From Azolla caroliniana (Eukaryota > Plantae > Polypodiophyta): 64,000 bases of DNA. The position numbers and the translations under genes are program-made. The notes under the pieces were generated by a model. It worked only from the letters and a program-made list of their open reading frames with translations, ran no database searches and was not told where the DNA came from. Below are positions 21,415 to 61,248 of this stretch, one piece after another. The stretch covers positions 16,740,001 to 16,804,000 of the forward strand of contig JBHGNT010000009.1 in assembly GCA_043228905.1 (NCBI GenBank), in the 5' to 3' direction. Every line of letters begins with the position of its first letter. Position 1 is the first letter of the stretch.

Positions 21415-21418
21415 CAGT

Positions 21419-21436: not shown

Positions 21437-21453
21437 AACCGGGTGGCAAGGAG

Positions 21454-26400: not shown

Positions 26401-27127
26401 GGATCGGACGACGCATAGCTCCGTAACAGGTTACATGCCGGCAGAACTCATGACCGGACAAGCACCGGTAATGCCGACGGAAACCGCGATCGCAACATGG
26501 ACAGTGCTACCGTGGTAGGAAGAGATGTGCCGGGAAGAACTACTAGCGGTCCGGATACGACAACTAGAGGGAAGACCGGCAGACATAGCGGAAGCAATAC
26601 GCCGACAACAAGAAGCACGATTCCGGAACAAAAGCCGGTTCGACACAAAGCACCGACTACGACCGAGGAGGATTGAAGAAGGAGATTGGGTGATCGTCTA
26701 TGACAGTAGTTTGGACCATCAATATACAACGATGCGGAAATTCGCGAAAAGGTGGTTCGGGCCATACGAGGTTCGGAAAGTCTTCGACAACGGAACGTAC
26801 CGACTGTCCGAGTTGGATGGAACAATACTACGAGTGCCTATAGCCGGGAAGCGGGTGAAGATTTTTAAGAAGCGGACCGACGACAAACCCTATGTGATCC
26901 AAGCCAAGGCCGACAACGAGGAGCAATCGGACAAAGACCACAGTGATGCGGGAAGCGAAGAAAGTGAATTACAACTCATAGTCGACATAAGGGAAGAATC
27001 GGAAGAAGCTTTGGGTGAAGACGGATATGAGGAATCGAGAACTTCGGCACATACCGGAGGATGTGCGGGTTCAGAGGGTACGAGTGTCGTGGTGTATTCC
27101 ACACACTACGTGAAAACCATAAAATAA
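23486..27127 (+). pseudogene. pol: Pol (RT-RNaseH-integrase) of element E; one in-frame TAG at 26516-26518
   Basis: ORFs 23612-26518 and 26525-27127; RT PFLDD, RH VTVDTS, IN H..H..C..C zinc-binding motif, ADRGE and WFGPY. The frame is open back to the slippery site at 23486. Confidence 0.93.
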
Positions 27128-27788
27128 TATATCGGATTTTAGATACATATAAATAAATAAATAATATATCAAAATATTTATCACGTGCATAGGGCAGGAT
27201 TCAAACCCTACACCTCCACGTAGATAAACTTCAACTTTACCATTGTCATAACTTATCTTTAGTGTTATACATATAGATTTAATACGTATAAGACCTTTAT
27301 TTACACATACCTTAATAAAAGGTAAAAATCATGTATTCTTTAGGGTGTGAATATTTTATTTACACGTGACATTAAAAGTGACTCATGCACATCTAGCGTG
27401 CATGAGCCCTATACTTAGGAAATGAACAAAGCATCACATGCACATTTAGTGTGCATGGACACTTTTGGTGAAAAAGCATGAAGCCATGCTTAGCCTCTTC
27501 CATCTTTATATAAGGAGGAGAGAAATATGTATAAGGTTGTTGATTAATATACAAGGATTGATCAATCTAATATATTCGTGGGATTCACAAATTTTTCCAT
27601 CTAAATTACTCTTATAATCTAAATATTGTTTTAAATACACTAAACTCGTGGGATTCACGAGATTGCTATCTTACTTCTCTTTCTACTATTCATAACTAGC
27701 CTTAAGTTGTATTCCTCTTCCTCCTAGTCCAAAACCTCGGCGGTTCCCACCCGACTCACGCAACGATCCGGAGCCGAAAGGCACGACA
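27085..27788 (+). repeat. 3' LTR of element E
   Basis: Direct repeat of 20710-21414. Confidence 0.96.
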
Positions 27789-35900: not shown

Positions 35901-37821
35901 CGGCAAGGGTGTTGCGACTGGCCTCACCTTCTAGTCCATAGTCTTGTACCTAGTATCCACGCAGGTCGTCTGACCCGACCCGACCCTTTCCCCGAAGTCA
36001 GCGATGACTTCGTACATCTCCACTCAACTAACCGGAACTGTTAGGTCTTCACTAAGGCCTCCTTCGACAACCTCGCATAATTCTCCCAAGGTGTCATCGA
36101 AGGAGACCGCCTCCACGGCACTACCAATCTCTTCGCCAAGGCCGAGGACTCCGTACGCCCTAAGTCTTTCTTCCGCCTGCTTCTTATTCCGGCCACTGAT
36201 GCTGGCTATAGTACAACCTCCGTTATAGGAGAACCAAAATTTCTTATCTATTGTACATGTGTGGGGTTCTTCCGGGGTGTCCGGACTATCGCGTCCCCAC
36301 GCCTTGATAGCCCTCTCTAAAAATCCCCTCGGCCCTCGCCGCCGAGGGTCTCACGGTTATGCTCATGGTTCGGCCTCACCGTCAAAATTTGAACGGAGCG
36401 TTGTCCGTCCTAGCTCTTCACACGCGCGTACGCCGATCCGTTGTCAAGCACCTTCGTTTCCATCCATGCCGCCATAATGTATGGCTCGCCTAGTATCACC
36501 AGGTGCGAGGAGGTCTCCTGCACAAAGAAGTGTTCATCTATCTCAACGTCGCCGATCTTTACGCGTACATTCGGGCACGCACCATGCAGCTCCTCCGTAG
36601 CACGTGTCCCCGCGCGTATCTTCCACCTGTGCTTGTTGTTGATCGGCCACTTCCCCTTTTTGTAGAAGTCCATGGACATTAGGTTGATCTCCGAGCCGTG
36701 GTCTATCAATGCCACCACCGGCTCCTGCACGTCCCCAACCCGGACAGGGGTCTCCGTAGTGGCTCTGGCCCAATGCGGCCTCACGTAGTAGCTGTCCGCC
36801 AACTCATCCTCTAGGGTCGTGCAGTGTCTTCTAGGTGCGTCATCCACACCTCCACGGGCTTCTCCGGCTCCGGCTCCGATGAGAGCCGCATCCGCTTCAC
36901 CAAGTCCACAATGGAGTCGTGGAACTCCTTCTTGGCAATTCCGAGCACTTCCCTGAGCAACAACTCCATCTTGCTGTTGAGAATCCGCTCCTCGAGGACC
37001 TTCTGCAGGTCTTTTGACCTCTCAATCTCCGTGCTTAGCCGGTAACCAGCCCTTTTCGTTTTATCCGGCACCCCGGTGTTGCCGGCATCGTTCTGCTTTA
37101 GTCCGAACCGGGTCTCCTACCGTTGTGAGGGACCGGCCCTTCCCGCGCGCTTGTCTTCTACCAGAACCTCGTAGTTCTGCACACGGCTTCCATGAAGCCG
37201 GTCTTTTCTTCGATCGGATCGTCCCATCCGGTGACCTCCTGAATCCGTTGTTCCACGTGGTCCGCTTCCTCTTTCCTCAGTCGAACCACGGTGAGGCCTT
37301 CCAGCACTAGCGGCCAGAATCCGAAGCCTTTCGCCTTCCGGCCCTCGTCGCCCCCGACCCGGATACCCGCCGACGCAAAGTAGTGGACGGCCTCTGCATG
37401 TCGCGTTGCGGCTTCTTCCATCAAGTGCTTCATCCCGCCGCGCCCGGTGTTCAACTCTAGGCCTTTCCGCGTGTCGCCGGCATGCACCTGCCCATTCCAA
37501 AGGTACACCACGTTGGCCCGGAGTGCCTCTACGAAATCCGTGCATTCTTTCCAGATGTGACCGACAACGCCACACCACATGCATCGTTGCCCCGTCATTG
37601 GCCTCCGATCACGAGGTTGATCGTCGTTGTCCCTCCGTGCTTGTGCGATCTGGAGGTCGCGCACCATTTGCGTCAACTCTTCTAGAGCCGCCCCTCTGGA
37701 AGAGCCTTGGACCACTCCGCTCGAGGTTGCGCCCGTCTCGATCCAATTCTGAGTCTCTTCCTTCCCAGCCGGCACCGATACCGGCTCCTCGATCTTCCTC
37801 GCTGGGACCAGCCCTGATGCC
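32963..37821 (-). pseudogene. gag-pol: gag-pol of element F, many lesions
   Basis: ORF pieces 36811-37071, 36410-36847, 35046-35567, 34656-35009, 34146-34457, 33713-33910, 33283-33711 and 32906-33202. Confidence 0.92.
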
Positions 37822-38668
37822 TGTTGGGAGACAGGTCCCTCTGGATGGGAAAGGAGAAGAACAGTGTCGAGGCCAAGACCGGATGAGGAGTACCCGGCTA
37901 CGGAGAGTCGGATGGTGCAGACCCGGTGAAGACCAGAAGAGGAGTACCCGGCTACAGAGAGCCGGATGGTGCAGACCCGGTGAAGACCGGATGAGGAGTA
38001 CCCGGCTACGGAGAGCCGGATGGTGCAGACCCGGTGAAGACCGGATGAGGAGTACCCGGCTACGGAGAGCCGGATGGTGCAGACCCGGTGAAGACCGGAT
38101 GAGGAGTACCCGGCTTCGGAGAGCCGGATGGTGCAGACCCGGTGAAGACCGGATGAGGAGTACCCGGCTTCGGAGAGCCGGATGGTGCAGACCCGGTCAG
38201 GAATGCTCACCGGATGAAGGGACATATTCGTAAATATGTTTTTGAGAGTCCATCGAGGCTATATTTGTAAATAGCCGAAAAGTCATATTAGTATAAATAT
38301 GACTTAGGGAAAACTTTTAGTTACTACTGTGTTGTCATTTCTTGTTGGTGCAAGAAAAGAGAGCGCGTAATTGTGTACAGTGAGAGAGAGAGAGAAAGAG
38401 GTCGTTGCCTCTGTTGTAACCGCTGCCTGTGGCGAAGATCGTGAGCACGAGGTCGTTGCCTCCGTGAACTCACTATTGTACATTCTAACATAGTGATAGT
38501 TTGTAGCCTGTGGGCTGCCGTGGTTTTTCCCTCTTTGGGTTTTCCACGTAAACATCATGTGTACTCTTCTCTTCTTCGTGTCGTGCTTTTATTTCCCGTT
38601 TTTCTGTGTATGATTCTAAGCTCGGTTGTGGCCGAGCGTTGCGTATAAGGAGCCTTGAGTTCCCATCA
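37822..38668 (+). repeat. 5' LTR of element I
   Basis: Starts TGTTGGGAGACAGGTCCCTCTGGATGGGA, homologous to the start of solo LTR K; TATAAATA at ~38292; ends ...CCCATCA before the PBS. Confidence 0.88.
37875..38197 (+). repeat. 6 x 54-bp tandem repeat in the U3 region of the element I LTR
   Basis: The unit AAGACCGGATGAGGAGTACCCGGCTACGGAGAGCCGGATGGTGCAGACCCGGTG starts at 37875, 37929, 37983, 38037, 38091 and 38145. Confidence 0.96.
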
Positions 38669-38697: not shown

Positions 38698-39314
38698 ATG
38701 GACGAATCGTTTGGCGGCATGTTCAAGCTCACCGGCTCCAACTATTCGGTATGGAAGTCGAAGATGAGGGACATGCTCATGGTTTAAGATCTTTGGTTGT
38801 TGGTTTAGTTTGGGGACAAGAGACCGGACAAAATCGATGCCACGATATGGGAGGTGATGCACATGAAGACAACGGCTTACATTCAATGCTTCATCGACAT
38901 GAGCCTATACAACAACTTCAATGAAGAGAGCAAGGCTCATGAGCTCTGGGAGAAGATCGTCATTATGTTTCAAAACAAAAATGTTGTTAATCAGGTTTCG
39001 GTGTTCCGGAAGCTAGTAAGACTCCGGTACCAAGATGGCTCCAGCATGGCGGAGCACATGAATGCCTTCCAGGGCTGATCCACCAGGCAACTTCATTGGA
39101 AGTACCTCTCTCCGATGAGGTACTTGCACTACTCCTGCTTGGTTCCCTCCCGGATAGTTGGGAGACGTTGGTTGTCACTTTGGGCAACGTCAGGCTGGAA
39201 AGAAAGCGGTTATCCCTAGCAAGAGTAAAGTCGATCTTGCTAGATGAGGAGGCATGTCGGAAAGACAAAGATACGAGCTCCGACTCCAAAGCGCTCCTTA
39301 CCGAATCGGAACGC
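38698..39314 (+). pseudogene. gag: Copia gag of element I, N-terminal part
   Basis: MDESFGGMFKLTGSNYSVWKSKMRDML...ALLLLGSLPDSWETLV; contains stops. Confidence 0.88.
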
Positions 39315-40019
39315 TGTCGTGAAGAAAACCGCCCACAAGAGGAATCGGAGGAACAAGGCGTGGGAAACGGCTCTACACACACACGCGCGCCAAGAAGTAC
39401 CTAAGGACGAAGTAGGTACATACGAGGATCCTAGGTGGGTAGATTCGGTTAATGCCAAACGGCCTCTTGACGGGCTATAAAAGGAAGAGGAAGAATAGAA
39501 GTGGGGGATCTCCCGCGGAGAGGACGAAGTGCTGCCGAACCGATTTCGGAGCTTCTCTCTCACTCCTGCTCTCTCTGTCTTCTGCTCCATCGCGTACCTG
39601 TGCAGGTTTCGAGGAGGCTCGCGCTGTTCCGTGGAACGCCCCGAGTGCGTCCTGCAGCACCTCCGACCTGTTTTCCCTTTCTGTGCGTCGCGACATACGG
39701 GGGTCGGCAGCTGTTCGCCGCCCTGTTCGTTTCGTTAGTATCTATTTTGTGCCCCACCGTGGGTTGTAATACTTTAGTCTGTTATTTTCTTGCATTCGTA
39801 AGTACATATCTCTCGTTGTTGCGTCCATCTGCGTCGGCGTTTATTTGTGATCTCTGTTTGTTGGGCCGTGTCCCTGTGCAATCGTCGGTTCTGCGCAATC
39901 GGATCTTCGGTTCTGTGTAATCGGGTCTCTCTCTCTTACTCCTCTCTCTCTTGCTCTTCGGTTCGAGACCCCCGTGGTCCCTCCTCCTTTCTACACGCAA
40001 GGGCGTAGAAACCCCGACA
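39315..40019 (+). repeat. 5' LTR of element G
   Basis: TGTCG...CGACA; CTATAAAA at ~39475; direct repeat of 54454-55158. Confidence 0.97.
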
Positions 40020-40022
40020 TCT

Positions 40023-40040
40023 TGGTGAACCCGACGTGAA
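40023..40040 (+). promoter_or_regulatory. PBS complementary to tRNA-Trp
   Basis: TGGTGAACCCGACGTGAA. Confidence 0.88.
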
Positions 40041-40062: not shown

Positions 40063-42189
40063 ATGAAGGGGGCGGATCTTGCAGAGGCCATGGCTTCGGC
40101 CGTGGATCGGATAGTAAGCGCGCGCGAGGGCACCGGCGCCCTCGATAGAGCTATTGAGGCGGTCGTCGGAACGATCGGTCGATTCACCGGAAAAGATGCC
40201 ACGAAGTACCTAGCGTCCTACGGTGCGGAAATGTTAATGCGGGACATTCCGGAAGACAGGCGTCTGGCCGGTTTTCCCCGAGTGGCGATGCCGAGCATCC
40301 ACGCGGAGGTGCTCGAGGTGCGGGCGGAGAGCCGTACCTGGGAGGAGTTCGAAGGTCGGCTCCTGGAAAAATACGGACTGGACGACGCGCTCCGGCTTTC
40401 GAAGCGAAGCTTCATGGAGTGGGTGGAGTCTCCCGGGAAGGGAAGGAATGCGTCGGCACTCCTCCGGGAGTTCGAGGAGAACTTCGCGCGCCTTTCGGCG
40501 CTTGACAGGATGGTCCTGGATACAAGCCGGGTCCTGCTGTTCGTCAAATCGGTTGACGAGAGGGATCGGGGTCACGTGGGCGCCCTGCTAGAAACCGAAG
40601 ATGGGCTGACAACCGACTGGGCGGCGGTCAAGAGAGCCTGCGGCCGTTTCGACAAACGGCGAGAATGGGAGGATGACAGAGCAACCGGGTCGGGCTCAGT
40701 CGCGGCGAGGAAACTCGAGCCGGCGCAGCCGGTGCGAAGGGAAGAGACTCGGGAGTGGCTGGAACCTGGTTCGGCTCCGACCGGCGTGATCGGAGGCTCG
40801 ACTGGGGGAGCTGCGTTGGAGGAACTGACGAGGGCGATAAAAGACCTCCAAATCGCACAAGCCCGCAGAGAAGGCGGAGGACCTGCTCGTGACCGACGGC
40901 CGGCGGCAGGGAACAGGTGCATGTGGTGCGACGGGGTCGGCCACATCCGAAAAGACTGCGGCGATTTCGCAGAGGCGCTGAGGAACCGGGTGGTGTACCT
41001 ATGGGAAGGCCGGGTTCACGCCAACGACACGAGAAGGGCCCTAAACCGAAACGACGGGCGAGGCGGAATGAAGAGGTTGATGGAAGAGGCGGCGGCCCGA
41101 CATGCGGAAACCGTCCACTACTCGGCGTCGGCCGGCATTCGAGTCGGGGGCGGCGAGGCCCGAAAGGAAAGCAAAGCCGGATTCTGGCCGACGATGCTAG
41201 AAGGCCTTGCCGGTGCAGGGCTTAAAAGGGAGGAATCGGACCGTGCGGAGAAACGGGTGCGGGAGATGACCGGGTGGAGCGACCCGGTCGAGGAAAAGAC
41301 GGGCTTCGTGGAAGCCGCTTGCCGGAACTACGAGGCTCTGGTAGAAGAGAAGCGGGTGGGGAAACCCGGGACGACCGGGCCCTCACAACGATACGAGACC
41401 CGGTCCGGGCCACGACGGGACGAAGCCGGCGGGGCCGGTACGCAAGGTAAACCCCAGAAGGGCGGATACCGTCTGGGGACGGAGATAGAAAGAACCACGG
41501 ACTTACGGAAGGTCCTGGAGGAACGGATCCTCGACAGCAAGGTGGAGCTGTCGCTACGGGAGGTGCTGGGAATCGCCAAGAAGGAGTTCCACGACTCCAT
41601 CGTGGACTTGGTGAAACGGAAGAGGCTGTCAACCGAGGCAGAACCGGAAAGTCCGGTGGAAGTGCGGACGACGCACCTGGACGACATGGCGCTGGAAGAC
41701 GAGTGGGCGGAGAGCCACTATTCGCGGCCACACTGGGCCCGAGCGACCACGGAAACCCCGGTAAAGATCGGCGATGTCCAGGAACCGGTAGTAGCTTTGG
41801 TGGACCACGGATCGGAAATCAACCTGATGTCCATGGACTTCTATAAGAAGGGCAAATGGCCGATCAACACCAAGCACGGGTGGAAGATAAGGGCGGCGAC
41901 GCGCGCCACCGAGGAACTTCACGGGGCCTGCCCGAATGTACGGGTCAAGATCGGCGATGTCGAGATAGACCAGCACTTCTTCGTGCAGGAGTCGTCATCG
42001 CACCCCGTCATACTGGGAGAGCCGTACATCACGGCGGCTCGAATGGAGACCAAGGTGCTGGACAACGGTTCGGCCTATGCGCGGGTCAAGAGCCAGGACG
42101 GGCGCCATTCGGTCCAGTTTTTGACGGTTAGGCCGAACCACGAGCGTAACCGCGACTCCCTCGGTTCCGATAACCGAGAGGATTTTTAG
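40063..42189 (+). CDS. gag: Gag-protease polyprotein of element G, 708 aa
   Basis: Uninterrupted ORF with CMWCDGVGHIRKDC knuckle, DLRKVLEERILDSKVELSLREVLGIAKKEFHD (DUF4100-like, from memory) and protease LVDHGSEINLM. Confidence 0.93.
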   Translation: MKGADLAEAMASAVDRIVSAREGTGALDRAIEAVVGTIGRFTGKDATKYLASYGAEMLMRDIPEDRRLAGFPRVAMPSIHAEVLEVRAESRTWEEFEGRLLEKYGLDDALRLSKRSFMEWVESPGKGRNASALLREFEENFARLSALDRMVLDTSRVLLFVKSVDERDRGHVGALLETEDGLTTDWAAVKRACGRFDKRREWEDDRATGSGSVAARKLEPAQPVRREETREWLEPGSAPTGVIGGSTGGAALEELTRAIKDLQIAQARREGGGPARDRRPAAGNRCMWCDGVGHIRKDCGDFAEALRNRVVYLWEGRVHANDTRRALNRNDGRGGMKRLMEEAAARHAETVHYSASAGIRVGGGEARKESKAGFWPTMLEGLAGAGLKREESDRAEKRVREMTGWSDPVEEKTGFVEAACRNYEALVEEKRVGKPGTTGPSQRYETRSGPRRDEAGGAGTQGKPQKGGYRLGTEIERTTDLRKVLEERILDSKVELSLREVLGIAKKEFHDSIVDLVKRKRLSTEAEPESPVEVRTTHLDDMALEDEWAESHYSRPHWARATTETPVKIGDVQEPVVALVDHGSEINLMSMDFYKKGKWPINTKHGWKIRAATRATEELHGACPNVRVKIGDVEIDQHFFVQESSSHPVILGEPYITAARMETKVLDNGSAYARVKSQDGRHSVQFLTVRPNHERNRDSLGSDNREDF

Positions 42190-42247
42190 AGAGGGCTGCC
42201 AAGGCGTGGGGCCGCGACAGTCCGGACACCCCGGGAAAACCCCACAC
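42180..42247 (+). promoter_or_regulatory. Predicted -1 ribosomal frameshift signal: GGAUUUU plus H-type pseudoknot
   Basis: Conserved in E (23486-23548) and F (minus strand, ~36259-36326). pol is in the -1 frame and open from this site. Confidence 0.8.
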
Positions 42248-44032
42248 CTGTACGATAAAACCGAAGAAACCTTGTACCATAGGTAGGGAATTTTTGTTCT
42301 CCGACAGCGGAGCGTGTACGATGGTCGGCATCGGCGGCCGAGAGAAGACAAAGGCGGAGGGGAGGCTTCGAGCGTGCGGAGTTCTCGGCCCGGACGAGGA
42401 AATCAACGGAGTCGTGGAGGCGGTCTCATTCGACGACACCTTGGGAATGCTGGGAAAAGTAGTCGAAGCAGGCCTTAACGAAGACCGGACGATACCGGTG
42501 TGTTCCGAGGAGATGTACGAAGTCATCGCGGACTTCGGTCGAGGGCTCGAGTCAGTTCGGACGGCCCACGTAAGCACCAAGTACAAGACTGTGGACCGGA
42601 AGGTAAGGCCGGTCGCGGCACCCTTACCGGAGGACAGCGCGTCGAGAATCAAAGGGGTTGCATCGGACCCTAGTCTACGAGATCCGGCCTGCATAGGGCA
42701 TACCTTCACCGACGAGACGCTCCGAGAGCTCAAAATCGGTGGGGGCGGGTTCCTACTGCCGGCGGAGGAAGACCGGTTTCGGAGAATGCTCGGAAGGCAC
42801 GGGAGAGCCTTCGCATTCTCGCCGGAGGAAATCGGGTGCGTTGACCCGACGATCGTGGAGCCGATGGTGATATTCACGGTACCGCATGTACCATGGAATC
42901 TCAAGCCAATACCGGTTCCGAGAGCTCACATCCCGAAGTTGATGGAGCTGCTGAGGCAGAAAGTTGATATGGGAATTCTCGAGCCGTCGAGCGCCCCATA
43001 TTCGAATCGATGGTTTACCGTACCGAAGAAAAACGGTTCGTTGCGTTTCATCCAGGACCTGCAGCCGGTCAATCGAGTGACCATTCGGAACGCTGGGATC
43101 GGACCGACCATAGACGAGTTCGCGGAGGCCTTCGCCGGAAGGTCAATTTACTCGGTCGGGGATCTATACTCAGGGTACGACCAGTTCCAGCTAGCCGTGG
43201 AGAGCAGAGACATTACGACGATGCGAACTCCCCTCGGCCTAGTTCGGATGTGTACACTGCCGCAAGGAGGGACCAACTCGGTGGCCCACATGGTGAATGC
43301 GATGAACAAGGTTCTGAGGGACTGTATCCCGGACATCACCATGCCGTTTCTGGACGACATCCCGATCAAGGGATGCCCGGTGGAAGAAAAGGACGAGACG
43401 ATCGGGCCGGACGGATGCCGGCGATTCGTGGCGACGCACATCGACGACTGCGAGAAGGTACTGCAAAGGCTAGAGGAAGCGAGACTCACCTTCTCCGGGG
43501 AGAAGTCGGCCTTCGGGCAGTCAGAAATCATGGTGGTCGGACACCTGTGCGGACCATATGGCCGGAAACCGTCTCCGGCAAAGGTAGAAGCCATCTCCGC
43601 GATGAAGCCCGACTGCAGCTCGGTCACGGAAGTACGGAGATTCCTGGGGGCATGCGCGTTCTACCACATATGGATCCCGCATTACGCACACGTCGCGGAG
43701 CCACTGTACGGGTTGCTGAAAAAGGGGCGAAGGTTCGAATGGCTAGACGAGCACGCGGAATCGGTCCGGGAGCTGAAAGAGGCCCTTGCAGCGGCACCGG
43801 CACTCCGTAAGGCGGTATACGGGAAGGGTACCCCGGTATTCATAACAGTGGATACCAGTCCGACCGGGATCGGATGGGTCGTGAACCAGGAAGACGAGGA
43901 CGGCAATCGGTTTCCGATCCGATTCGGCGCGAAAGTCCTCAGTGAACGGCAGCGAGGATACGCCCAGGTTAAACGCGAACTCTGGGGTATTGTTTCGGCG
44001 GTTAAGGCCGACAAAGACTACCTGATAGGGAC
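42180..44032 (+). CDS. pol: Pol of element G, 5' part (RT and N-terminal RNase H), interrupted by H
   Basis: PYSNRWFTVPKKNGSLRFIQDLQPVN, PFLDD and ITVDTS. It ends at YLIGT, where H begins. Confidence 0.92.
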
Positions 44033-44403
44033 TGTTGGCCGGTCAGAGAAGGCAAATGGGAAAGCAAGGTCGGATCGGATAAATATAGAAATAGGAATAG
44101 AATTATTAGGAGGGACGGATCCGGTAGTTGTAACCGATCCGGATCCGAACCGATTCGGTTTCGGTTAACGGTTGCTTACCGAGCACCGATTGTAATCTGG
44201 CCGGATGCCTATAAAAGGATCCGATGTTTTGTAATGAAAGCGCGAAGAATTAATATAGTTTTGCTTATGCTGATTAATCTTGTCTTCGTCTGTGCTTAAG
44301 TGTAATTATCATACGCGTGTATTAACATCCTATCCCTACCACCCCTTTGGAGAAGTGTCGGATAGACACCTGTGTTGCGGCTAGTCCAGCCATACATACA
44401 ACA
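44033..44403 (+). repeat. 5' LTR of element H
   Basis: TGTTG...CAACA; CTATAAAA at ~44209. Confidence 0.97.
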
Positions 44404-44409
44404 CTATTT

Positions 44410-44419
44410 TGGCGACCAC
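44410..44419 (+). promoter_or_regulatory. PBS, probably tRNA-Arg
   Basis: TGGCGACCAC, 6 nt after the LTR. J has TGGTGACCAC at the same place. The tRNA identity is from memory of plant tRNA-Arg ends (...GUGGUCGCCA). Confidence 0.65.
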
Positions 44420-44455
44420 GATTCCTGCAGAGTGCAGAGGACAACCGGGGGATGG

Positions 44456-47400
44456 ATGTCTAGACAAAATAACGACCACATCACCGAAAGAGGGAGACGC
44501 CACGCCGAACGGCAGCGACGACGGGAAGCCCCGCAGCAAGCCGTCGACGAGATCCGGAGCGATCGGTCATTCTCAACAACGCTTCGGCAAATCGCAGAAA
44601 ACGCACTGCAGTTCCAGGTTCTACAAGCTTCCGACGAAGGCAGTAGCATAACCAGCCTCCAAGAAGCGGAGACACTACTACAGACTCTCGCTGGCGGCGA
44701 CGGGGACGCAGCGGCATTTGCAACATTAGAGGCGGATTCGGATAGCGGGGAAAGCGTGGGATCCCGCTATAAAAGCAGCCACGGGAACAACCCCTTTGAG
44801 TCGGATCACTCAGCAACATCGGAGCCAGAGGAGGAACTAACTCTGGAGTTCGGTGACCGGCAATCGCCGAGGAGGGAGGAGCGGATACCAACACCACCCG
44901 CGGAGGAACCGCAGGAGCGGTTATCAACACCACCCGCGGAGGAACCGCAGGAGCGGATATCAACACCACCCGCGGAGGAACCGCAGGAGCGGATACCAAC
45001 AGCACCCGCGGAGGAACCGCAGGAGCGGATACCAACACCACCTGCGGAGGAACCGCAGGAGCGGAGACCGACATCGGAGGAACCAGCGCAGGAGAATCAG
45101 TGGGACGACACGATGCCGTATCCGTACCCAAAGTATCGGGATGAGCCCGACGGAGAGGCACATGTGTATGCATTCCTGCGAACATGGGAAGCCAACCACG
45201 TGTCCCAGAGACTGACGGAGGCCGAGGCCGACCGATCCAAAGTCGCCGAATTCGGCATGACATTAGAAGGACCGGCGGCCCGGTGGCACGACAAGCACTT
45301 ACCAGGCAGCTTCGCCACGTTCGAGGCATTGAAAACCCAGTTTTTACGCTTGTTTCATAGACGAGTGGAACAAAGGGAATTGGTCGGACAATTCTACACC
45401 ACTCGGCAGGGAGAAAACGAGACGGTCCCACAATTTATCATTCGTTTCCAGACCTTGCACAGTCAATTAGCAAGAGCACCACCCGAAGAGGAGGCCAAGG
45501 CAGTCTTTTTGGCTGCGTTAAAAGACCCACTTCGAGCGATGTGTGGAATCATCGATTTCAGCACCAGCACAATGGACCAAGTCATTGATCGGGTCCTGGA
45601 AATGGACAACACGAGCCCCTTCTTGCCGATGGGGGCGTTACACCAGGCGCTTCCGAAGGAGGAGGACCTCCGGTTCCGACAAGCCCTACAATGCACAACA
45701 TGCCTAAATTCGGGGCACTCGACCGTTGACTGCACCCTGCGCGCACAGTGCATGATATGCAATTCTCGCGCCCACACAACGAACCAATGCGAGTATAACC
45801 TGTTAACTCGACAAGCGGCACCGGTCCGACACATAGAACCGCGCAATCGGGACCCGGAAGAGGATCGATTCCGGAGGGACGACCGCTACCGACGAGAACG
45901 CGGCGACAGATACCCCGATAGAAGACGCGACAGCTATGACCGAGAGGAGAACCGAAGGGATAGCTACCCCCGGGACCGGTACGACCGAGAGGAGAACCGA
46001 AGGGATAGCTACCCCCGGGACCGGTATGACCGAGACGAATCCCCGGAATATGAGCGACGCAGAGAAGAAAGGCGGCCAGGGAACCGGAATTTCCGACGGA
46101 ACCAAAGGCGTGGATTCTTCCGTAGAGAGGAGCGTCGGGAGGCAACAAGGAATGACAAACCAGTCGCGGCACCGGAGAACCGAAAAACCGAGGACAACCG
46201 CCGGGGAATGCCCCTTCCCCGAACATGGGAAAAAGGAGAATCCAGCAACACGCACAGGGTGTACTGTTATTACTGCCGAAAAGAAGGGCATTACAGTAAT
46301 CAATGCCCAAGCAAAACAGCCGACAAGCAGCCAGCAGTCAACATGGTGACAGCCGAAGTACAGCAGGTTACCACGCGGTCGAAGGGGAAAGCCGCCGAAT
46401 GGGAAGCCCAGGAAGCAATCAGAAAACAAGCGGCACAATGGATCAAAGAAGCCAACGAACAAGGTGCGGCGGAAGTAAGAAACCAAAATATGCCAAGGGA
46501 GGAGGAAATCGTACAGCCAGGAGAAAACCCGACATGGCAAGCACTACAAGATTGTCAGATCGTGCTGCCGTTGGCACGGTTACTACAGTTGGTGCCGCGG
46601 TTCACAGCAGACTTACAAGCCGCCGTGAGCAAACCGACGCCGACGCCGGCACCGGCATTTTTCTCCAACCCGGAGGAAGGCCCAGCGGTGGTTGATACAA
46701 GTAGCCCAGCAATCACGACAATCGTCAAAGGAAAGGAGATTCCAGGAACAATTATTGACGGAGGCTCCGGGGTGAACGTCATTAGTCGACAGACATGCGA
46801 CGACCTTGCCGACTTTGCGACACCATTGCACGCTGCTGTACATAGAGTACCTTTCCAATGGACAGAAACGGAGGAGGCAGCCTACCAAGCGTTGCAGGTC
46901 ATGCTGTCACAAGCTCCGGTGGTGCAGCCGCCGGACTGGAGTAAAAGCTTTCACGTCTTCGTCGACGCGTCGGACGTAGCAATCGGCAGCGTTTTGATGC
47001 AACTCACGGAACCGAAATGGTATCGGCCGGTGTACTACGCAAGCAGGAAACTCTCGAAAGCCGAACGGAACTACTCTACAACGGAACGAGAGGCATTAGG
47101 AATGGTGTACAGCGTCACAAAGTACAGGCACTATCTGCTCGGACGAAAGTTCTCATTCCACGTTGACCACTCGGCGCTACTCTACCTGGTGTCAAAGGCA
47201 GCCCTGACAGGAAAACTCGCACGGTGGACGCTGCTATTACAGGAATTCGAATTCGACATTTTCCACCGACCCGGGGTGCAGCATGCGGTAGCAGACTACC
47301 TGAGCAGACTAGAATCCGGAGAATCAGGGGACGGCGTACAGGACGAATTTCCCGACGCCGAGCTGTTTAAGGTCACGACGGCACCGGCAACGGAAACCAC

Positions 47401-48781
47401 AGTAGCGGACGAAGACAAATGGTTAACCGAAATGCATCAGTTCCTGAGCACCGGAGTTCCCCCGGAAAACCTGGACCGAGACGAACGGAAGAGGATGGCA
47501 GTACGGAGCAGACATTTCTGCTTGGTAGGAGACACCCTCTATCACAAGGGGGCAGATGGCGTATGGAGGCGAGCAGTGCGGAGCGATGAAAAGGATCTGA
47601 TCCTGAGGGAAGCCCACTGTGGAATTGCAGGCGGGCATTATGCCGGTGAAACAACAGCCCGGAAGATATGGCAGAGCGGACTATGGTGGCCGACTACCAT
47701 GAGAGATGCCGTTAAGTATAGCAGGGAATGCGACCTGTGTCAACGACTGGGCCAACCCACGGAGCAGGCCCGGATGCCACATCACCCGGTCTTGCCATTA
47801 GAACCATTCCAAAAGTGGGGCTTGGACTTTGTCGGCCCCTTTAAGCCACCGGCAATGCGGACCGGAAATCGGTATATAATAGTGGCTACCGACTACTGCA
47901 CCAAATGGGTAGAAGCAAAGGCACTACGGGACAACACGGCGGCGTCCACGGCCAAATTTTTATATGAATGCATATGGTGTCGGTACGGATGCCCGATTGA
48001 GCTGATCAGTGACCAGGGAGGACATTTCCTCGGGCAGGTGGTGGAAAGTTTGACATCATTCTATGCGGTAGTACACAAACGAAGCACTCCCTACTACCCT
48101 CAAGCCAACGGATTAGCGGAATCAACAAACAAAACGCTACAGAACATCCTTAGAAAAATCGTCAATGAGAACCGGACCGACTGGGACACGAAGTTGCAGA
48201 GCGTGCTGTGGGCGTACCGAACGGCGTACAAGACTAGCATCCGGACGACCCCGTTCCGACTGGCATTCGGCTTGGAAGCAGTCATGCCAGTAGAATTCCA
48301 AATTCCTAGCTTAAGAATACAGGTTAAGGAGCGGTTAAGCGAGAAGGAATCCGAACGAATCCGGCTGAAGATGCTGTTAGAACTGGAAGAAAATCGAATA
48401 GCCAGCCTGCTACAGCTAGAACTAGAGCAAAGGAGGAGGAAAGCCTTTGTAGACCGACACCGGCGCGGTAACGAAAAGGAATTCGAGATCGGGAAACCGG
48501 TATTACTGTTCCAGACAAGGATGGGGAGCATGCCAGGGAAATTGCGATTTCGGTGGACCGGACCATTCTGGATCACAAAGGAGTACAATGGGTCTTACCA
48601 GCTCGGGACGTTGTCAGGAGAAGTTGTGGGCAAATGGGCAAATGGTTTTCGCCTAAAACCGTATAAGGGGCACATGCCAGCTAACCCCTTCAAGCAAGAA
48701 CCGACACCGACGCGTAACAACGACGAGGAACCGACAACAGTGCGCACCGACCCGAACACATCGGGGGGAACCGAACAATGA
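44456..48781 (+). CDS. gag-pol: Gag-(truncated protease)-RNaseH-integrase polyprotein lacking the RT catalytic domain, ~1441 aa from the first in-frame ATG
   Basis: Capsid (TLEGPAARW...QGENETV), three CX2CX4HX4C knuckles, PR start IIDGGSGVNVI fused to ADFATPLH...FQWTE, RH VFVDASD, IN PFQKWGLDFVGP / ISDQG / NGLAE, and RWTGPF. No (Y/F)xDD motif. Confidence 0.93.
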   Translation: MSRQNNDHITERGRRHAERQRRREAPQQAVDEIRSDRSFSTTLRQIAENALQFQVLQASDEGSSITSLQEAETLLQTLAGGDGDAAAFATLEADSDSGESVGSRYKSSHGNNPFESDHSATSEPEEELTLEFGDRQSPRREERIPTPPAEEPQERLSTPPAEEPQERISTPPAEEPQERIPTAPAEEPQERIPTPPAEEPQERRPTSEEPAQENQWDDTMPYPYPKYRDEPDGEAHVYAFLRTWEANHVSQRLTEAEADRSKVAEFGMTLEGPAARWHDKHLPGSFATFEALKTQFLRLFHRRVEQRELVGQFYTTRQGENETVPQFIIRFQTLHSQLARAPPEEEAKAVFLAALKDPLRAMCGIIDFSTSTMDQVIDRVLEMDNTSPFLPMGALHQALPKEEDLRFRQALQCTTCLNSGHSTVDCTLRAQCMICNSRAHTTNQCEYNLLTRQAAPVRHIEPRNRDPEEDRFRRDDRYRRERGDRYPDRRRDSYDREENRRDSYPRDRYDREENRRDSYPRDRYDRDESPEYERRREERRPGNRNFRRNQRRGFFRREERREATRNDKPVAAPENRKTEDNRRGMPLPRTWEKGESSNTHRVYCYYCRKEGHYSNQCPSKTADKQPAVNMVTAEVQQVTTRSKGKAAEWEAQEAIRKQAAQWIKEANEQGAAEVRNQNMPREEEIVQPGENPTWQALQDCQIVLPLARLLQLVPRFTADLQAAVSKPTPTPAPAFFSNPEEGPAVVDTSSPAITTIVKGKEIPGTIIDGGSGVNVISRQTCDDLADFATPLHAAVHRVPFQWTETEEAAYQALQVMLSQAPVVQPPDWSKSFHVFVDASDVAIGSVLMQLTEPKWYRPVYYASRKLSKAERNYSTTEREALGMVYSVTKYRHYLLGRKFSFHVDHSALLYLVSKAALTGKLARWTLLLQEFEFDIFHRPGVQHAVADYLSRLESGESGDGVQDEFPDAELFKVTTAPATETTVADEDKWLTEMHQFLSTGVPPENLDRDERKRMAVRSRHFCLVGDTLYHKGADGVWRRAVRSDEKDLILREAHCGIAGGHYAGETTARKIWQSGLWWPTTMRDAVKYSRECDLCQRLGQPTEQARMPHHPVLPLEPFQKWGLDFVGPFKPPAMRTGNRYIIVATDYCTKWVEAKALRDNTAASTAKFLYECIWCRYGCPIELISDQGGHFLGQVVESLTSFYAVVHKRSTPYYPQANGLAESTNKTLQNILRKIVNENRTDWDTKLQSVLWAYRTAYKTSIRTTPFRLAFGLEAVMPVEFQIPSLRIQVKERLSEKESERIRLKMLLELEENRIASLLQLELEQRRRKAFVDRHRRGNEKEFEIGKPVLLFQTRMGSMPGKLRFRWTGPFWITKEYNGSYQLGTLSGEVVGKWANGFRLKPYKGHMPANPFKQEPTPTRNNDEEPTTVRTDPNTSGGTEQ
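44874..45065 (+). repeat. In-frame 36-bp tandem repeat (QERIPTPPAEEP, ~5 copies) in the Gag N-terminus of H
   Basis: caggagcggataccaacaccacccgcggaggaaccg repeated. Confidence 0.92.
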
Positions 48782-48793
48782 TGCGGCATATGT

Positions 48794-48819
48794 AAAAAAA
48801 AAAAAAAAAAAAAAAAAAA
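48794..48819 (+). repeat. Poly(A)26 tract just after the pol stop of H
   Basis: Direct observation. Confidence 0.95.
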
Positions 48820-49224
48820 GATGATGACGTGGTGCTACGGGTAGAAAAGTCAAGACCAGAAGATCAAGAAAATCATGGTAATGATGAAGGAGGTAGTTAC
48901 AACCGTCACACGGGTGCACGAGCTATTTAAAGCACAGAACGTGGGGGCGCCGAGGTACAGGACTTAATACGTGCGTCAATTAAGGAGTCATAATGACAGA
49001 CACGTAGGAGATTCGACACACGCGGCAAAGAAACGCAAGCATGACACGCGGCAGCAAAAATAGGACATACTATTCATGACACAGCATGCGCAGGCGCCAA
49101 AAATAGGACATATTATTCGAGGCAGAGGACGTGCAGACGTCGAAATTAAAAAGTAAGATGCTAATTATGGCAGAAGATACGCACGCGCGAAAAACAGGAA
49201 AAGGCGGCTCGAGGGAAACGCCAC

Positions 49225-49232
49225 TATATAAA
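49225..49232 (+). promoter_or_regulatory. Putative internal TATA box for the accessory ORF
   Basis: CTATATAAAGG ~140 nt upstream of the ATG at 49368, preceded by several ACGT and ACGCG motifs. Confidence 0.55.
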
Positions 49233-49367
49233 GGAAGAACCGGGGAAGGGTTCACTTTTTACGAATTTTCCCACAAGCAAACGCAGGCTCATGACAGCAA
49301 GATCCGACGCGCAGAACACCTACACCCCGACCTCAGACCACAGGCAGCAGCAAACGAAGAAGAAGCG

Positions 49368-52310
49368 ATGGCACTGTCGGACGGAGCGCGACAATGGCTG
49401 ACGGAGAACGGATTAGGAGGGCTGCTGCGGGTCGCTGACGCTCCACCACACAAGGAACCAGAGCAGGCGGCAACAGCGGTGGACTTAGCAGAGGTCACTG
49501 AAGGAGCGGTACAAGCGCTCACAGGGATTTCGGAGGGAGGACTTCAAACAATAGAGCTACCCTCGAGCCAAATATTCTTCGAGTATTTCGGCGAATATTC
49601 CCTTAGCAGCAAGGCGTATCGCACACAGGGCGGAGAGAACCTGCTGTTCGGAGCGGTGGCCCGCGCCCTGATGGAGTACGGGTTCGTGAACCCTCGTCCG
49701 GCAGCCATAGCCAAATACCGAGCAGCGATCGTCATCGCGACATTCGAAGGCCTGCAGGTGGACTGGCTCCACTTCATCACCGAAGGACTAAAAGAGGCGA
49801 TCAAGCACTTGGTGGAAGGGAAGAAGCCATGGTCCGGAATATCCCAATGGTTAACAGTGTTGGTCCCACCGGTGTCTCCCATCAAGCACAAGCAAAGAAG
49901 TCGGCAGGAGACTACCCCGAAGCAAACCATGAAACGCCGACGAATCCTAGAGAAACACACTCCAAGATGGACACAGGAAGAAGAAGCGCCGCGGGAAGAA
50001 GGATCATCCCGACAGCCGCGGGAAGAGGGATTATCCCGACAGCCACGGAAAGAAGGCTCATCTCGACAACCGCGGGAAGAAGACTCATCCCGACAGCAAA
50101 GGGAGGAAGGCCCATCACGGCAGCCACAGAAACAGCAACAGCAACCGACAATGAAGAAGAAAAAGGCGGAAAAAGGCAAGGAGAAGGTGGCAAAGAAGAC
50201 CGGCAAAAGGCAAACCGACACCGAACCAGTAACGCTCGAATCGGAACCGGTACCAGTAAAGCAACCAATAATGGCACCGACGGAGGACGCTGAAACAGAG
50301 GAAGACTCATCCGAACCGATGTTAATACTACCACCCAGGCAAGGAAAGGAGAAACGAGCGACAAGACCGACCCCAACAGCGGACGGAACTCAGCAAAGGG
50401 CAAAAGAACCGCCTCCAGTAACCGGAACAGAAGCGACACAGGATGAAGGTCCGTCTGCACCAAACACGGCAGTACCGGAACCGACGGCGGCGGAGTTCGA
50501 AGAACAAAGAAAGGAACAAGCGCCGGAACAAGAGAAGAGGCCGGAGAAACAGCCGGAAAAATAGCCGGAGCTAGGCACGCCTGCTGACACCAACGAAGGC
50601 AGAACAAAGGCACAATGGCTAAGGTTGTTGTCAGAGCAGTTGTCGGGAGTAGCAGACCAGATGGAGAAAGAGGAGGAGCAAAGAGAAGAAGTGACTAGGA
50701 CGATGACTAAGGATATGGTCATGCTCCGGGCACAATTACATGAGCTGCAAGAAGAGCTAGCACAGGCAAAAGAAGGTAGCCGACAAGCACAAGATGGCAC
50801 CGAGCCGGTCGGGACATCTGAAAAGCAAGCCGAACCAGAAACGGAGAGGGCCTTGCAAACCGGCCCTGAGACCGAGAAGTTAATAGCAACTTTGAAAGAA
50901 GAATTACAGGCTCAGGAGGCATTGAGAGATAACGAAAGAGAGCAGCGGAAGTTGGCAGAAGACGACAGACGGCGAATGGAGGAAGGCCTTCGCCGAAGCA
51001 AAGCCACCAATGACCGACTACAAGAAGAAAACGGGACACTGCAAAAGGAAAAAGATAGGCTGCGCCGACGAATGGAGCAGGAAATTGAGCGGTTGCGAGA
51101 GGAACTCCGACAACAAAAGGACCGGGATGATCAGTTGCGAGCTCAGGCGAACCGACGCCTAAAACAGAAGACGGAGGAATTCGACAGACTATGTAAGGAT
51201 TATAAACAGGCCACGTCGGACATCAAGAATCAGGCAGCAACGTACGACCGACAGTTAGAAAAGCTGAAAGAGCAGCTCAAGGAAAACCGCTTGGAATTGT
51301 CCAAAGCAAGGGAGGAAGTATCGGTGGAGAAGACCTTGACGTCGGAACAAAGAAAGGAGATGGAAGTACTTCGGCAGAAAGTAGGGGAGCTGACAAAGAG
51401 CAGGAATGAGGAGAAAGTGAAGTTGACTTTCGAAATCAACAAATGGCGGAGTACCTGTGACAAGCAGAAAGTCGACTCTGAAGCTCAAGCTCAGTTAATG
51501 GCCGACATCATCAAACGGATAAGGAAGGAAAAACAAGCAGCTTCGGAACAGGCTAAAGCAGGGGTTGACCGAATTAAGTTCATCATGTCAAGCTGGAGTA
51601 CCCGAGCTCAGGCCAGCATAAATGAAAGCACGGAGAAACTCTGGAAGGAATGGGCACAACAGGCAGCTGAACTGCAGACACTCCGAGCTGATGCAGAAAA
51701 TCGGAAGAAAACTGGAGATGCGTTCTATAAAATGGACGAAGAAAGTATCGTCAACATCCGGGAAGAACTGTCGGAGGATTTCTATGCTCTAGCAGAAGAG
51801 CATCTCAAGGAAATCCGAGGGTTAGTAGAGAGGTTGGATGACGGGCAGCTCGAAACCCAACTAGAATTGGAAGGGTACGAGAAGGACCGACTGCGACAGG
51901 AAGCCGCGGGACACACAACGCCGATCTCCATTAGTGAGGGCGAGCGACCGGCTGAAGAGGACCCAACCAACATTGCACCCCGACAAGAATTACCCGAGGA
52001 AGAACTTCCGGAGCAAGAGCAGGTTGATGCCGGGGATGATGCAGAGTGGAGACAGAGAAGTACCGAATCCGGGGAGGAAAGGACACAACCAGTGGAAACC
52101 GGAGAAAGCGGTACCGGGAACGGAACGGAGGTAGAGCAGGACAGACCCGGACAGGATACAGAAGAAACACCGGTTCTACCGGTAGAAGCAGAGTCGGAGC
52201 AGCAAGATGCGGAAAGGCAGCCAATCCAATCGGACGTCGGAGACGGCACAGGCAAAACAACACTTGAAACCTCGGAGCGGAGTTTGCCTGATAATTTGGA
52301 GGAAGACTGA
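49368..52310 (+). CDS. Accessory protein of H (~980 aa: globular head, disordered linker, long coiled coil, acidic tail); one in-frame TAG at 50562-50564
   Basis: ORFs 49131-50564 and 50625-52310 are in the same frame, separated only by a TAG within a QPEK repeat. Homologous to J 57984-60755 (YFGEYSL.SK.YRTQG; IATxEG..VDW; WAQ.AAELQ.LRAD..NR). Confidence 0.85.
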
Positions 52311-52360
52311 AGCCGGCTGTGGGTTCGAAGTGCAATGCACTTTCCCACGGGCGTGCCATG

Positions 52361-52731
52361 TGTTGGCCGGTCAGAGAAGGCAAATGGGAAAGCAAGGTCG
52401 GATCGGATAAATATAGAAATAGGAATAGAATTATTAGGAGGGACGGATCCGGTAGTTGTAACCGATCCGGATCCGAACCGATTCGGTTTCGGTTAACGGT
52501 TGCTTACCGAGCACCGATTGTAATCTGGCCGGATGCCTATAAAAGGATCCGATGTTTTGTAATGAAAGCGCGAAGAATTAATATAGTTTTGCTTATGCTG
52601 ATTAATCTTGTCTTCGTCTGTGCTTAAGTGTAATTATCATACGCGTGTATTAACATCCTATCCCTACCACCCCTTTGGAGAAGTGTCGGATAGACACCTG
52701 TGTTGCGGCTAGTCCAGCCATACATACAACA
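52361..52731 (+). repeat. 3' LTR of element H
   Basis: Identical by eye to 44033-44403. Confidence 0.97.
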
Positions 52732-52736
52732 GGGAC

Positions 52737-54381
52737 AGAAGTGATCATCGAGACGGATTGCCTGCCGATTCTCGGTATGGTTTCCGGGTGCGCGACTCCG
52801 GACCTGGCGATGCTCAGGTGGATAGCGTACATCAAGTCCCTGGATCCGGAGATACGACACATTTCCGGGAAAGACAACGCCATGGCCGACATGCTTTCGA
52901 GGGCGAGGTTCGACGACGAGGGCGGCATGGTTTCGGAAGACGAAGAAGTCGGCGTGGATTTCTTCGAGGCGGCATACATAACGACCGACGGGATGAGCAC
53001 TCCGGCGCTTAACGAGTTCGACGCGAGCAAGTACGACGGGGAGTGGCTGCAGATCGGCGGGTTTTTGAAGACAATGACGCCCGATGCGTCAAGGACGAAG
53101 GACGAGGCCAACCGGATCCGGAAGAAAGCATATCGATTCTTTCTCCGAGATGGGCATTTGTGGAAGCACCCGAAGAAGAGGAACGGCGTCCCGCTCCGGG
53201 TGGTGGCGATGAAGGAAGAACAGGAGGAGCTACTGGCGGCCTACCACGACAGCCCTTGGGCTGGACACCGTGGAACGTGGGCGACATTTGAGAAGCTGAA
53301 GGGGAAGTACTGGTGGCCGGGGTTGTACCAGGACGTGCATCGGTTCGTGACAACTTGCGAGAGCTGCCAGATTCACTCCATAGTCCGACATCGAGACGAG
53401 CTTCACCCTACGTACCCTCCGGCCATCCATTTCAAATGGATGGTAGATCTGGTGACGATGCCGATGGGGGTAGGACAGATGCGGTATCTGGTCCTAGCGC
53501 GGGAAGACCTGACGAACCAGGTGGAAGGCCGAGCCCTTCAGAACAAGACGACCGCGGCCGTGTGTCGGTTCCTGATCGAGGACGTGATATGCCGGTACGG
53601 GTGCGTCGGGAAGATCGTGGCTGACCGAGGGGAGTTGGACGCCGAGGAAGCCGCGGAGCTGTTCGATCGGCTGGGAGTCAAGCTCTCGCTCACCACTGCG
53701 TACAACCCGGAGGCGAATGGAAAGGTGGAGCGCGGACACGGGCCGATCGTTAAGGCGCTGGTTCGGGCATGCGGAGGCCAAGTCGGTAACTGGCCGCGAC
53801 TTCTACCTTATGCTTTGTGGGCAGACCGGACCACGCACAGTTCGGTAACCGGGTACATGCCGACGGAGCTCATGTTCGGCCAGAAGCCGATCATGCCGAT
53901 TGAACGGACGATCTCCTCGTGGGCAACGGTCGACTGGAGGGACGAGATGAGCCGGGAGGAGTTGTTGACCGCACGTATACGACAGCTCGAGCGGAGACCG
54001 GAGGACGTGGCACTGGCTACGGAGAAGCTCCGGGTGGCGAGGACAAAGAACAAAGCCCGGTTCGACCGAACGCACCGGCTACGACCGAAGAAAATCGACG
54101 AAGGTGACTGGGTGCTCGTCTACGACAGCAGCCTCGACAACCAGCACCGAGCAACGCGGAAGTTCGCACGGAGATGGTTCGGGCCGTACACGGTACAGAG
54201 CGCCAACGACAACAGGACGTATCATCTGGCGGAGCTCGACGGTACGAGAATAGCGATACCCGTGGCCGGGAAGAGGATCAAAGCTTTCAAGAAGCGGCAC
54301 GACGACGAACCCGACCCGATTCTCCTGGACAGCAGCGACGACCGATCCGAGGCCGAGGAAGGGCCGGCAGGCGAAGAGTAG
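52737..54381 (+). CDS. pol: Pol of element G, 3' part (rest of RNase H and integrase)
   Basis: Resumes EVIIETDCLP in frame with YLIGT; HDSPWAGH..CESC, ADRGE, NGKVE and WFGPY. Confidence 0.93.
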
Positions 54382-54453: not shown

Positions 54454-55158
54454 TGTCGTGAAGAAAACCGCCCACAAGAGGAATCGGAGGAACAAGGCGT
54501 GGGAAACGGCTCTACACACACGCGCGCGCCAAGAAGTACCTAAGGACGAAGTAGGTACATACGAGGATCCTAGGTGGGTAGATTCGGTTAATGCCAAACG
54601 GCCTCTTGACGGGCTATAAAAGGAAGAGGAAGAATAGAAGTGGGGGATCTCCCGCGGAGAGGACGAAGTGCTGCCGAACCGATTTCGGAGCTTCTCTCTC
54701 ACTCCTGCTCTCTCTGTCTTCTGCTCCATCGCGTACCTGTGCAGGTTTCGAGGAGGCTCGCGCTGTTCCGTGGAACGCCCCGAGTGCGTCCTGCAGCACC
54801 TCCGACCTGTTTTCCCTTTCTGTGCGTCGCGACATACGGGGGTCGGCAGCTGTTCGCCGCCCTGTTCGTTTCATTAGTATCTATTTTGTGCCCCACCGTG
54901 GGTTGTAATACTTTAGTCTGTTATTTTCTTGCATTCGTAAGTACATATCTCTCGCTGTTGCGTCCATCTGCGTCGGCGTTTATTTGTGATCTCTGTTTGT
55001 TGGGCCGTGTCCCTGTGCAATCGTCGGTTCTGCGCAATCGGATCTTCGGTTCTGTGTAATCGGGTCTCTCTCTCTTACTCCTCTCTCTCTTGCTCTTCGG
55101 TTCGAGACCCCCGTGGTCCCTCCTCCTTTCTACACGCAAGGGCGTAGAAACCCCGACA
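54454..55158 (+). repeat. 3' LTR of element G
   Basis: Direct repeat of 39315-40019, preceded by AGGTGGGGGCGGA. Confidence 0.97.
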
Positions 55159-55162
55159 ACGC

Positions 55163-56143: not shown

Positions 56144-56577
56144 TGTTACCGGCCGGCAAAGGAGTCCAGAGTGGGAAACGGAGAGCTAATTAAGTAGTAG
56201 GAATGTGGTTGTAATTAAGCTATGAGTGTGGACGGACGGACCGGAATCGGTATGCCGTTCCGGATCCGGACCGATCCCGAACAGGTGCGGATGGCACCGT
56301 TTTGTAATACAGACCGGAAACTTATTTAAAGGCCCGGATACAATGTAATAGTTAGCGGTTAATTAATGAAAGCTTAAGCGTTGTTATCTCTCTGTGTTAA
56401 TTGCCGTTCTGTCGTAATTGTTATATATTACGCGTGTTATGAAAGACGATCCTAATAAGTAACTTAATTAAGTCGGATTAAGCGTTGAAGTCTAATCCGG
56501 TTGCCGTAACACCCTTTGGTGAAGTGTCTCCCGTAGACACCCTGTGTTAGGCCATTGTTCGGCCCGAAGAGTTAACA
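56144..56577 (+). repeat. 5' LTR of element J
   Basis: TGTTA...TAACA; direct repeat of 60810-61243. Confidence 0.96.
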
Positions 56578-56630
56578 CAGTTTTTGGTGACCACGATTCC
56601 TGTTTTTGAAGCGAACGACGGCACGGATGG

Positions 56631-60755: not shown

Positions 60756-60809
60756 CAAGGGTCGGTTGTGGATTCGACGTACAAGGTACTGTCCCATGGG
60801 CGTGCCATG

Positions 60810-61243: not shown

Positions 61244-61248
61244 AGGAT

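Follow-up and report, generated by a model that had tools for sequence, protein, structure and literature searches.

In alpharetroviruses, the protease is encoded in frame with Gag. The proteases of myeloblastosis-associated virus (MAV) and Rous sarcoma virus (RSV) are made in an amount equal to that of Gag (PMC3185560), and a −1 shift of ≈5% leads RSV ribosomes into pol (PMC5009743); the latter source, in the portion available, assigns the RSV protease to pol and in this respect differs from PMC3185560, which is followed here. The −1 signals of dianthoviruses and umbraviruses, which are decoded by plant ribosomes, consist of the heptamer G_GAU_UUU, a nearby stop codon, and a stem-loop with long-distance pairing (PMC5009743). 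In arteriviruses, G_GUU_UUU is the site of −2/−1 frameshifting that gives rise to nsp2TF (PMC4937337, PMC6675879), a process that needs nsp1β and PCBP bound to a C-rich motif and has no obvious RNA structure, and Trichomonas vaginalis virus 1 (TVV1) is a proposed user of −2 frameshifting among relatives that shift by −1 (PMC3542737). Comparable among plant LTR retrotransposons are Ogre and Retand, which are split after the protease (GAG-PROT from RT-RH-INT), by a spacer or intron in Ogre and by a single stop codon in Retand, and Tcn1 and Selgy of non-seed plants, in which frames overlap between Gag and protease. The REXdb lineage table gives no lineage in which a post-protease overlap is the prevailing layout (PMC6317226), and the accessible part of a recoding review, citing a 2003 survey, names two plant element types with split frames only, both of them +1.

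The elements described here resemble alpharetroviruses in that the protease is in frame with Gag, pol would be reached by a −1 shift, and the putative stimulator is a pseudoknot. They differ in that they are plant Ty3/gypsy elements with a G_GAU_UUU heptamer, an immediate stop codon, a compact knot of ≈50 nt, and a DHG protease. They share the heptamer, the nearby stop, and plant ribosomes with the dianthoviruses and umbraviruses, but have a local, predicted H-type pseudoknot in place of long-distance pairing.

Element lineage and the junction after the protease

The window, i.e., the whole 64-kb stretch of DNA analyzed, harbors three related elements denoted E, F, and G (Table 1). As a sequence-only reading of the window had it, each carries the heptamer followed directly by the 0-frame stop codon, and the −1 frame is open into reverse transcriptase (RT) in E (GFLKRTVAEWG, ORF 23372–26518) and G (GFLERAAKAWG), both of which give Pfam RT/RNaseH matches; the −1 frame of F is open over the ≈100 codons translated. 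The same reading had called the three elements diverged. The motif is indeed present in all three, but G groups with F in a single subclade (86% amino acid identity over protease and RT, vs 75% for G and E). G is a young element, with 3 mismatches in 705 bases between its LTRs, and pol is open in the −1 frame over 1165 codons in all eight G-family copies fetched. E is decayed, its frame being interrupted by a stop at 22867 and, upstream in the protease, by a 1-nt break, and F, a decayed copy as well, carries stops. The signals of E, F, and G are real, but the earlier reading had missed the decay of E and F, the Phygy identity of the elements, and a sister family in which pol lies in the +1/−2 frame.

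Table 1. Coordinates of the signals and element features of G, E, and F in the window.
Feature	Position	Strand	Remark
G slippery heptamer G_GAU_UUU	42180–42186	+	0-frame codons Asp, Phe
G Gag-PR stop codon UAG	42187–42189	+	first part of 6-nt spacer 42187–42192
G stem 1, 5′ arm GGGCUG	42193–42198	+	
G stem 2, 5′ arm GUGGGG	42206–42211	+	inside loop
G stem 1, 3′ arm CAGUCC	42218–42223	+	
G stem 2, 3′ arm CCCCAC	42240–42245	+	
G rival hairpin (CCGG)	42221–42235	+	overlaps stem 1 3′ arm; kept only in G/F subclade
G Gag-protease ORF, 708 aa	40063–42189	+	retropepsin domain ≈41746–42126; DHG motif from 41803
G pol ORF, −1 frame (RT, RNaseH)	42174–44168	+	interrupted by nested element 44033–52731
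G pol remainder with integrase	ORF 52654–54381	+	
G 5′ LTR	39315–40019	+	3′ LTR, 54454–55158
G target duplication ACGC	39311–39314 and 55159–55162		
G primer-binding site	40023–40039	+	complementary to tRNA-Trp
E signal	23486–23549	+	heptamer 23486–23492, then stop UAA
E stem 1	23498–23508/23520–23530	+	11 bp
E stem 2	23512–23517/23544–23549	+	
Element E, decayed	20710–27788	+	LTRs 20710–21414 and 27085–27788; PBS at 21419
E target duplication			GCGT/GCAT
F signal, decayed element	36261–36326	−	heptamer 36326–36320, then stop UAG
F stem 1	36313–36306/36290–36283	−	8 bp
F stem 2	36300–36295/36266–36261	−	

Other elements are interleaved with these. The gypsy element nested in G has identical 371-bp LTRs, a 5-bp duplication (GGGAC), a largely missing RT, and extra long, coiled-coil-like ORFs (49107–52310), and a more deleted relative of it occupies 56144–61243. 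The 5′ part of the gag region of F (37821–38252) contains at least six copies of a 54-nt tandem repeat, and Ty1/copia fragments are found at 6714–7821, 11849–12796, and 61189–63084.

Judged by the NCGN target duplication and the tRNA-Trp primer site, the elements appear to fit the Phygy clade of non-chromovirus Ty3/gypsy elements, a placement by features. The duplication is perfect in 14 of 18 copies with an LTR pair (20 fetched), the primer-binding site is the complement of the 3′ end of a genomic tRNA-Trp, and the domain order is GAG-PR-RT-RH-INT, with no extra ORF and no chromodomain in a Pfam scan. REXdb characterizes Phygy by an NCGN duplication, a tRNA-Trp primer site, and an ORF organization entered as not determined, with a size of 7.7 to 10.0 kb that is a descriptive range from one species, Physcomitrium (PMC6317226, in the part available). 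Our elements match this description in the 4-bp NCGN duplication, the primer site, a short, coding-filled layout, and close Physcomitrium homologues, but the G and E types (7.1–7.3 kb; the G family, 7.16–7.33 kb) are smaller than the REXdb range; the sister family measures 7.8 to 8.0 kb. Physcomitrium, Riccia, and Adiantum supply the named homologues of Gag-protease and RT, which suggests a non-seed plant as host; a search of viral contigs returned no relatives. The composite pattern of heptamer, GUGGGG, and CCCCAC has 2739 matches in the 523-Mb assembly vs none for a reversed control; these matches represent copy number, not independent evolution. Two further relatives, L202 and L203, lie on short contigs of prokaryote genomes (a cyanobacterial metagenome-assembled genome and a Streptomyces assembly) and are most likely contamination. 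Three tandem tRNA-Trp(CCA) genes spaced ≈700 bp apart are found at L201:44–1521.

The end of ORF1 was identified as a protease by a fold search rather than by a sequence search. Its model (pLDDT 83.5) folds as a retropepsin, with Ddi1, XMRV, and HIV retropepsins as the best fold matches (E 6e-6), and the junction therefore lies after the protease. PDB sequence searches did not detect the protease, and Pfam protease models matched only 5 of 46 members, G not among them. The motif at 41803–41811 is D-H-G, invariant in 77 aligned sequences, where D-T/S-G is the usual motif. By analogy with the MAV protease, which has low specific activity, D-H-G might be appropriate where the enzyme is as abundant as Gag.

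The signal recurs at the ends of related Gag-protease frames. Among 120 homologues, the C-terminal residues are DF in 69, GF in 3, NF in 3, and PL or PF in 23; in the five PL/LL-type loci for which DNA was examined, the heptamer stands five codons before the stop. We analyzed 80 metagenome loci that were anchored by protein and not chosen by signal, of which 60 were scorable, with a protease end and an open RT frame (7 lacked the protease end, 12 had no RT in the locus, and 1 was blocked). All 60 harbor G_GNU_UUY within five codons of the stop, although most come from one accession series with many near-duplicates and are not independent samples. Pol is in the −1 frame in 58 of them and in the +1 frame in 2, and the heptamers are GGAUUUU (51), GGAUUUC (4), GGGUUUU (2), GGUUUUU (2), and GGUUUUC (1). 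Thirty loci of the same genome, anchored upstream, comprise 12 that are open and have the heptamer (10 of these with G_GAU_UUU in −1), 8 that are blocked, 3 open without heptamer, 3 without RT, and 4 that are unrelated; blocked and heptamer-less loci are as expected of decayed copies.

The predicted pseudoknot and a rival fold

Downstream of the heptamer, the stems of E, F, and G are as previously written, and the pair cited as covarying (alignment columns 19–39) is G-C in G, A-U in F, and G-U in E. Of the 27 −1 types, 25 have a spacer of 5 to 7 nt; in the other two it is 3 nt if additional pairs are counted into stem 1. Stem 1 of G is just 6 contiguous bp, and an Rfam search of the 64-kb window matched no family. 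To these junctions we applied an alignment of 30 junction types (alignment A2; protease and RT identity of 54–91%), which is nearly gapless through stem 1. It was derived from 31 junction clusters by omitting the deletion copies L089 and L176, replacing L062 with L083 and L001 and L032 with G and E of the window, and adding F. With the pseudoknot imposed, in a geometry chosen after seeing the aligned sequences, 82% of cells are paired, and double changes are seen at 14 of the 17 pairs. The paired fraction was reached in 0 of 500 shuffles and the number of double-change pairs in 2 of 500; slid controls pair in 38 to 44% of cells.

Across the 30 types, the covariation of both stems exceeds that of a home-made null (not R-scape) that takes the tree into account, with columns evolving independently on the protein tree; for stem 2 this holds with a free register. 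Stem 1 pairs 15–43 and 18–40 rank first and second among 1378 column pairs (E 0.022 and 0.034), and the stem 1 pairing was reached by 18 of 3000 simulations. In the plain alignment, stem 2 is not significant (293 of 3000), owing to a loop 3 of variable length (11–16 nt); with the register left free in both data and null, stem 2 scores −13.3 vs −10.2 kcal/mol (0 of 3000). The GUGGGG/CCCCAC helix, earlier called invariant, is so in G, E, and F, but lineage-wide it changes in a compensatory manner, to GCGGGG/CCCCGU, GCGAGA/UCUCGC, CAAGG/CCUUG, and GAGGGU/ACCCUC. Since the codon phase of CCCCAC differs between E and G, this motif is not merely an encoded peptide. In both stems an arm pairs better with its own partner than with that of another family (0 of 100,000 permutations), and in 27 of the 30 types no other site within ±600 nt scores as well as the junction; equal or better sites elsewhere number two for G, one for L098, and 29 for the poorly scoring L123. 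The held-out L202 sequence (46% identical) has the heptamer, the stop, and the −1 frame, retains 11 of the 12 pairs of stem 1, some as pair types not seen before, and, as judged by eye, keeps five of six stem 2 pairs.

A different fold merits consideration. In the nested minimum-free-energy structures of G and F (z of −0.5 and −1.2), stem 1 is replaced by a CCGG hairpin, with stem 2 staying in place in G, and 31 distinct junctions of the G/F type preserve this hairpin well, as they do stem 1 (six pairs in 31 of 31). Many −1 signals are simple stem-loops, and it is conceivable that frameshifting is driven by stem 1 alone or by a switch with this hairpin, leaving stem 2 to packaging or dimerization. 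We consider this very unlikely. As a lineage-wide structure the hairpin was rejected (41% of cells paired, reached in 51 of 500 shuffles), and the stem 2 core columns are paired in 29 to 30 of the 30 types, with one column U-A in 12 and C-G in 8; per-column p-values for this stem use the fitted register and lean toward structure. Within the G/F subclade, competition of the hairpin with stem 1 represents a possible conformational tuning of the signal.

Routes to pol in the −1 types

Programmed −1 frameshifting after the protease, with a pseudoknot predicted 5 to 6 nt downstream, is the best explanation of these junctions and very probably the correct one. The Gag-protease frame would be read to G_GAU_UUU and its stop, with RT-RNaseH-integrase encoded in the −1 frame. 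There, a predicted H-type pseudoknot, presumed to fold in vivo, would likely make a minority of ribosomes slip back by one base, to yield Gag-PR-Pol. The tRNA-Asp and tRNA-Phe would slip in tandem from GAU_UUU to GGA_UUU, giving D-F-L-E-R at the G junction. Most ribosomes would stop at once, and Gag-PR would outnumber Pol, as in alpharetroviruses. We infer −1 slippage because of these features and known signals (PMC5009743), the available text of which confirms GGAUUUU as a documented −1 shift site; what the sequence-only reading led one to expect (protease in ORF1, heptamer phase, −1 overlap, spacer, and covariation) held throughout.

Splicing might instead carry the message past the Gag-PR stop into pol, in the manner of Ogre, where an intron separates GAG-PROT from RT (PMC6317226); the RNA structure would then serve another role. 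A protease-end motif occurs in 21 of 120 pol hits, one of them false, and the other 20 are Riccia gene models that fuse both ORFs, which would be in keeping with splicing. Here, however, the ORFs overlap rather than being spaced, the best-shared donor-like GT near the site is present in no more than 8 of 29 types, and three RNA runs from related copies reveal no joint at the junction, at a thin summed depth of ≈40 over both strands; splicing is accordingly highly improbable. In the Riccia models (P0191–P0283), protease and RT are joined by heterogeneous linkers, which are possibly false introns bridging the frameshift.

We attach the same low probability to separate translation of pol from an AUG of its own, whether ribosomes reinitiate there or enter internally. 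Such a start is more plausible for the +1/−2 sister family (L142 and L143; see below), where an in-frame AUG precedes the site by 3 or 6 codons in both types, but a pol-frame AUG is found in the overlap of none of the 27 −1 types, whose first Met falls anywhere from codon 2 to 107. Even for the sister family, a +1-frame AUG is present anyway in 7 of the 27 −1 types, its position differs between L142 and L143, and both retain the pseudoknot, with changes that are compatible. Least probable of all is that RNA polymerase slippage in the U5 run, which most types do possess, adds a base to some transcripts in the absence of any ribosomal shift, since types with GGAUUUC, GGGUUUU, or GGUUUUC have a shorter run, no indel is listed at the site at ≈40-fold depth (from which a few percent would escape), and a 3′ pseudoknot at ribosome distance is left unexplained. 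Stop-codon readthrough was rejected because no intact copy among those examined encodes pol in frame 0.

A sister family with pol in the +1/−2 frame

L142 and L143 group together with 100% support, and their clade is nested among the −1 types. Their site is AG_GUU_UUU, with pol in the +1/−2 frame and the knot 5 nt downstream; the −1 frame closes at once in L142 and a few codons later in L143. A genome search with the spacing of the pattern left free gave 100 matches, 98 with the same spacing, one with an extra U, and one apparently unrelated. Loci L142, L143, L171–L200, and L204–L240 represent the family, which is absent from the window. In 12 copies fetched, which were selected partly for long open frames, the −1 frame is closed after 2 codons in all 12, pol is open in −2/+1 over 1154 to 1155 codons in seven, and both ORFs (737–739 and 1154–1155 codons) are intact in six, with LTRs 99.4 to 100% identical. 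The family is derived and young, with ≈100 copies that include intact ones. The arrangement itself is old, with pol under selection, because L142 and L143 pol sequences have a dN/dS of 0.088 at a dS of 1.16. The sister-family knot is among the strongest, L142 and L143 differing just by compatible stem 1 changes. RNA reads on this family numbered 20, too few for any reading.

As to how pol is reached here, we lean modestly toward a −2 slip on AG_GUU_UUU, with +1 slippage and reinitiation at the upstream AUG as rivals. By the same slight preference, one base may have been lost from the site in what would be an active family, the shift changing from −1 to −2 with the knot retained; this would constitute a natural −2 frameshift that relies on RNA alone, is driven by a pseudoknot, and provides an essential polymerase. 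Shorter spacers favor −2 (PMC3458567, in the part available). The sister-family spacer is 5 nt, but since 9 of the 27 −1 types also have a 5-nt spacer when the terminal pair is counted, spacing alone does not decide direction. G_GUU_UUU would allow A-site re-pairing, and a long ORF lies in the −2 frame; re-pairing in the P-site after a −2 slip would be poor, as in arteriviruses.

The likeness to arteriviruses extends to the immediate −1-frame stop that, together with G_GUU_UUU, most copies have in common with PRRSV. In place of protein factors on a C-rich motif (CCCANCUCC, none of which is found in the sister-family junctions listed), the sister family has a pseudoknot, inherited from −1 relatives, that starts 5 nt downstream. 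The signal would thus work like the arterivirus signal without being one. TVV1 offers a precedent for a proposed −2 user among −1 types.

Our literature search, which covered few subscription journals, returned no description of frameshifting, −1 or −2, in Phygy or bryophyte elements, and the portion of PMC7466625 available makes no mention of ORF or Phygy. As judged from sequence, the −1 signal is genuine and well supported, a variation on an established mechanism in a lineage for which we did not find it described, and the −2 derivative is possibly rarer. A plant retrotransposon lineage thereby gains a well-supported −1 signal, positioned after the protease as in alpharetroviruses, and a −1 overlap at this point would offer a layout for Phygy, which REXdb leaves undetermined. 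The frameshift may also explain why Riccia gene models join the ORFs at heterogeneous points. Finally, as the −1 and +1/−2 families share one knot, whether one base of spacing sets the direction of the shift in nature becomes testable; the −2 switch, if true, would amount to a test, run by evolution, of the spacer/tension model for the direction of slippage.
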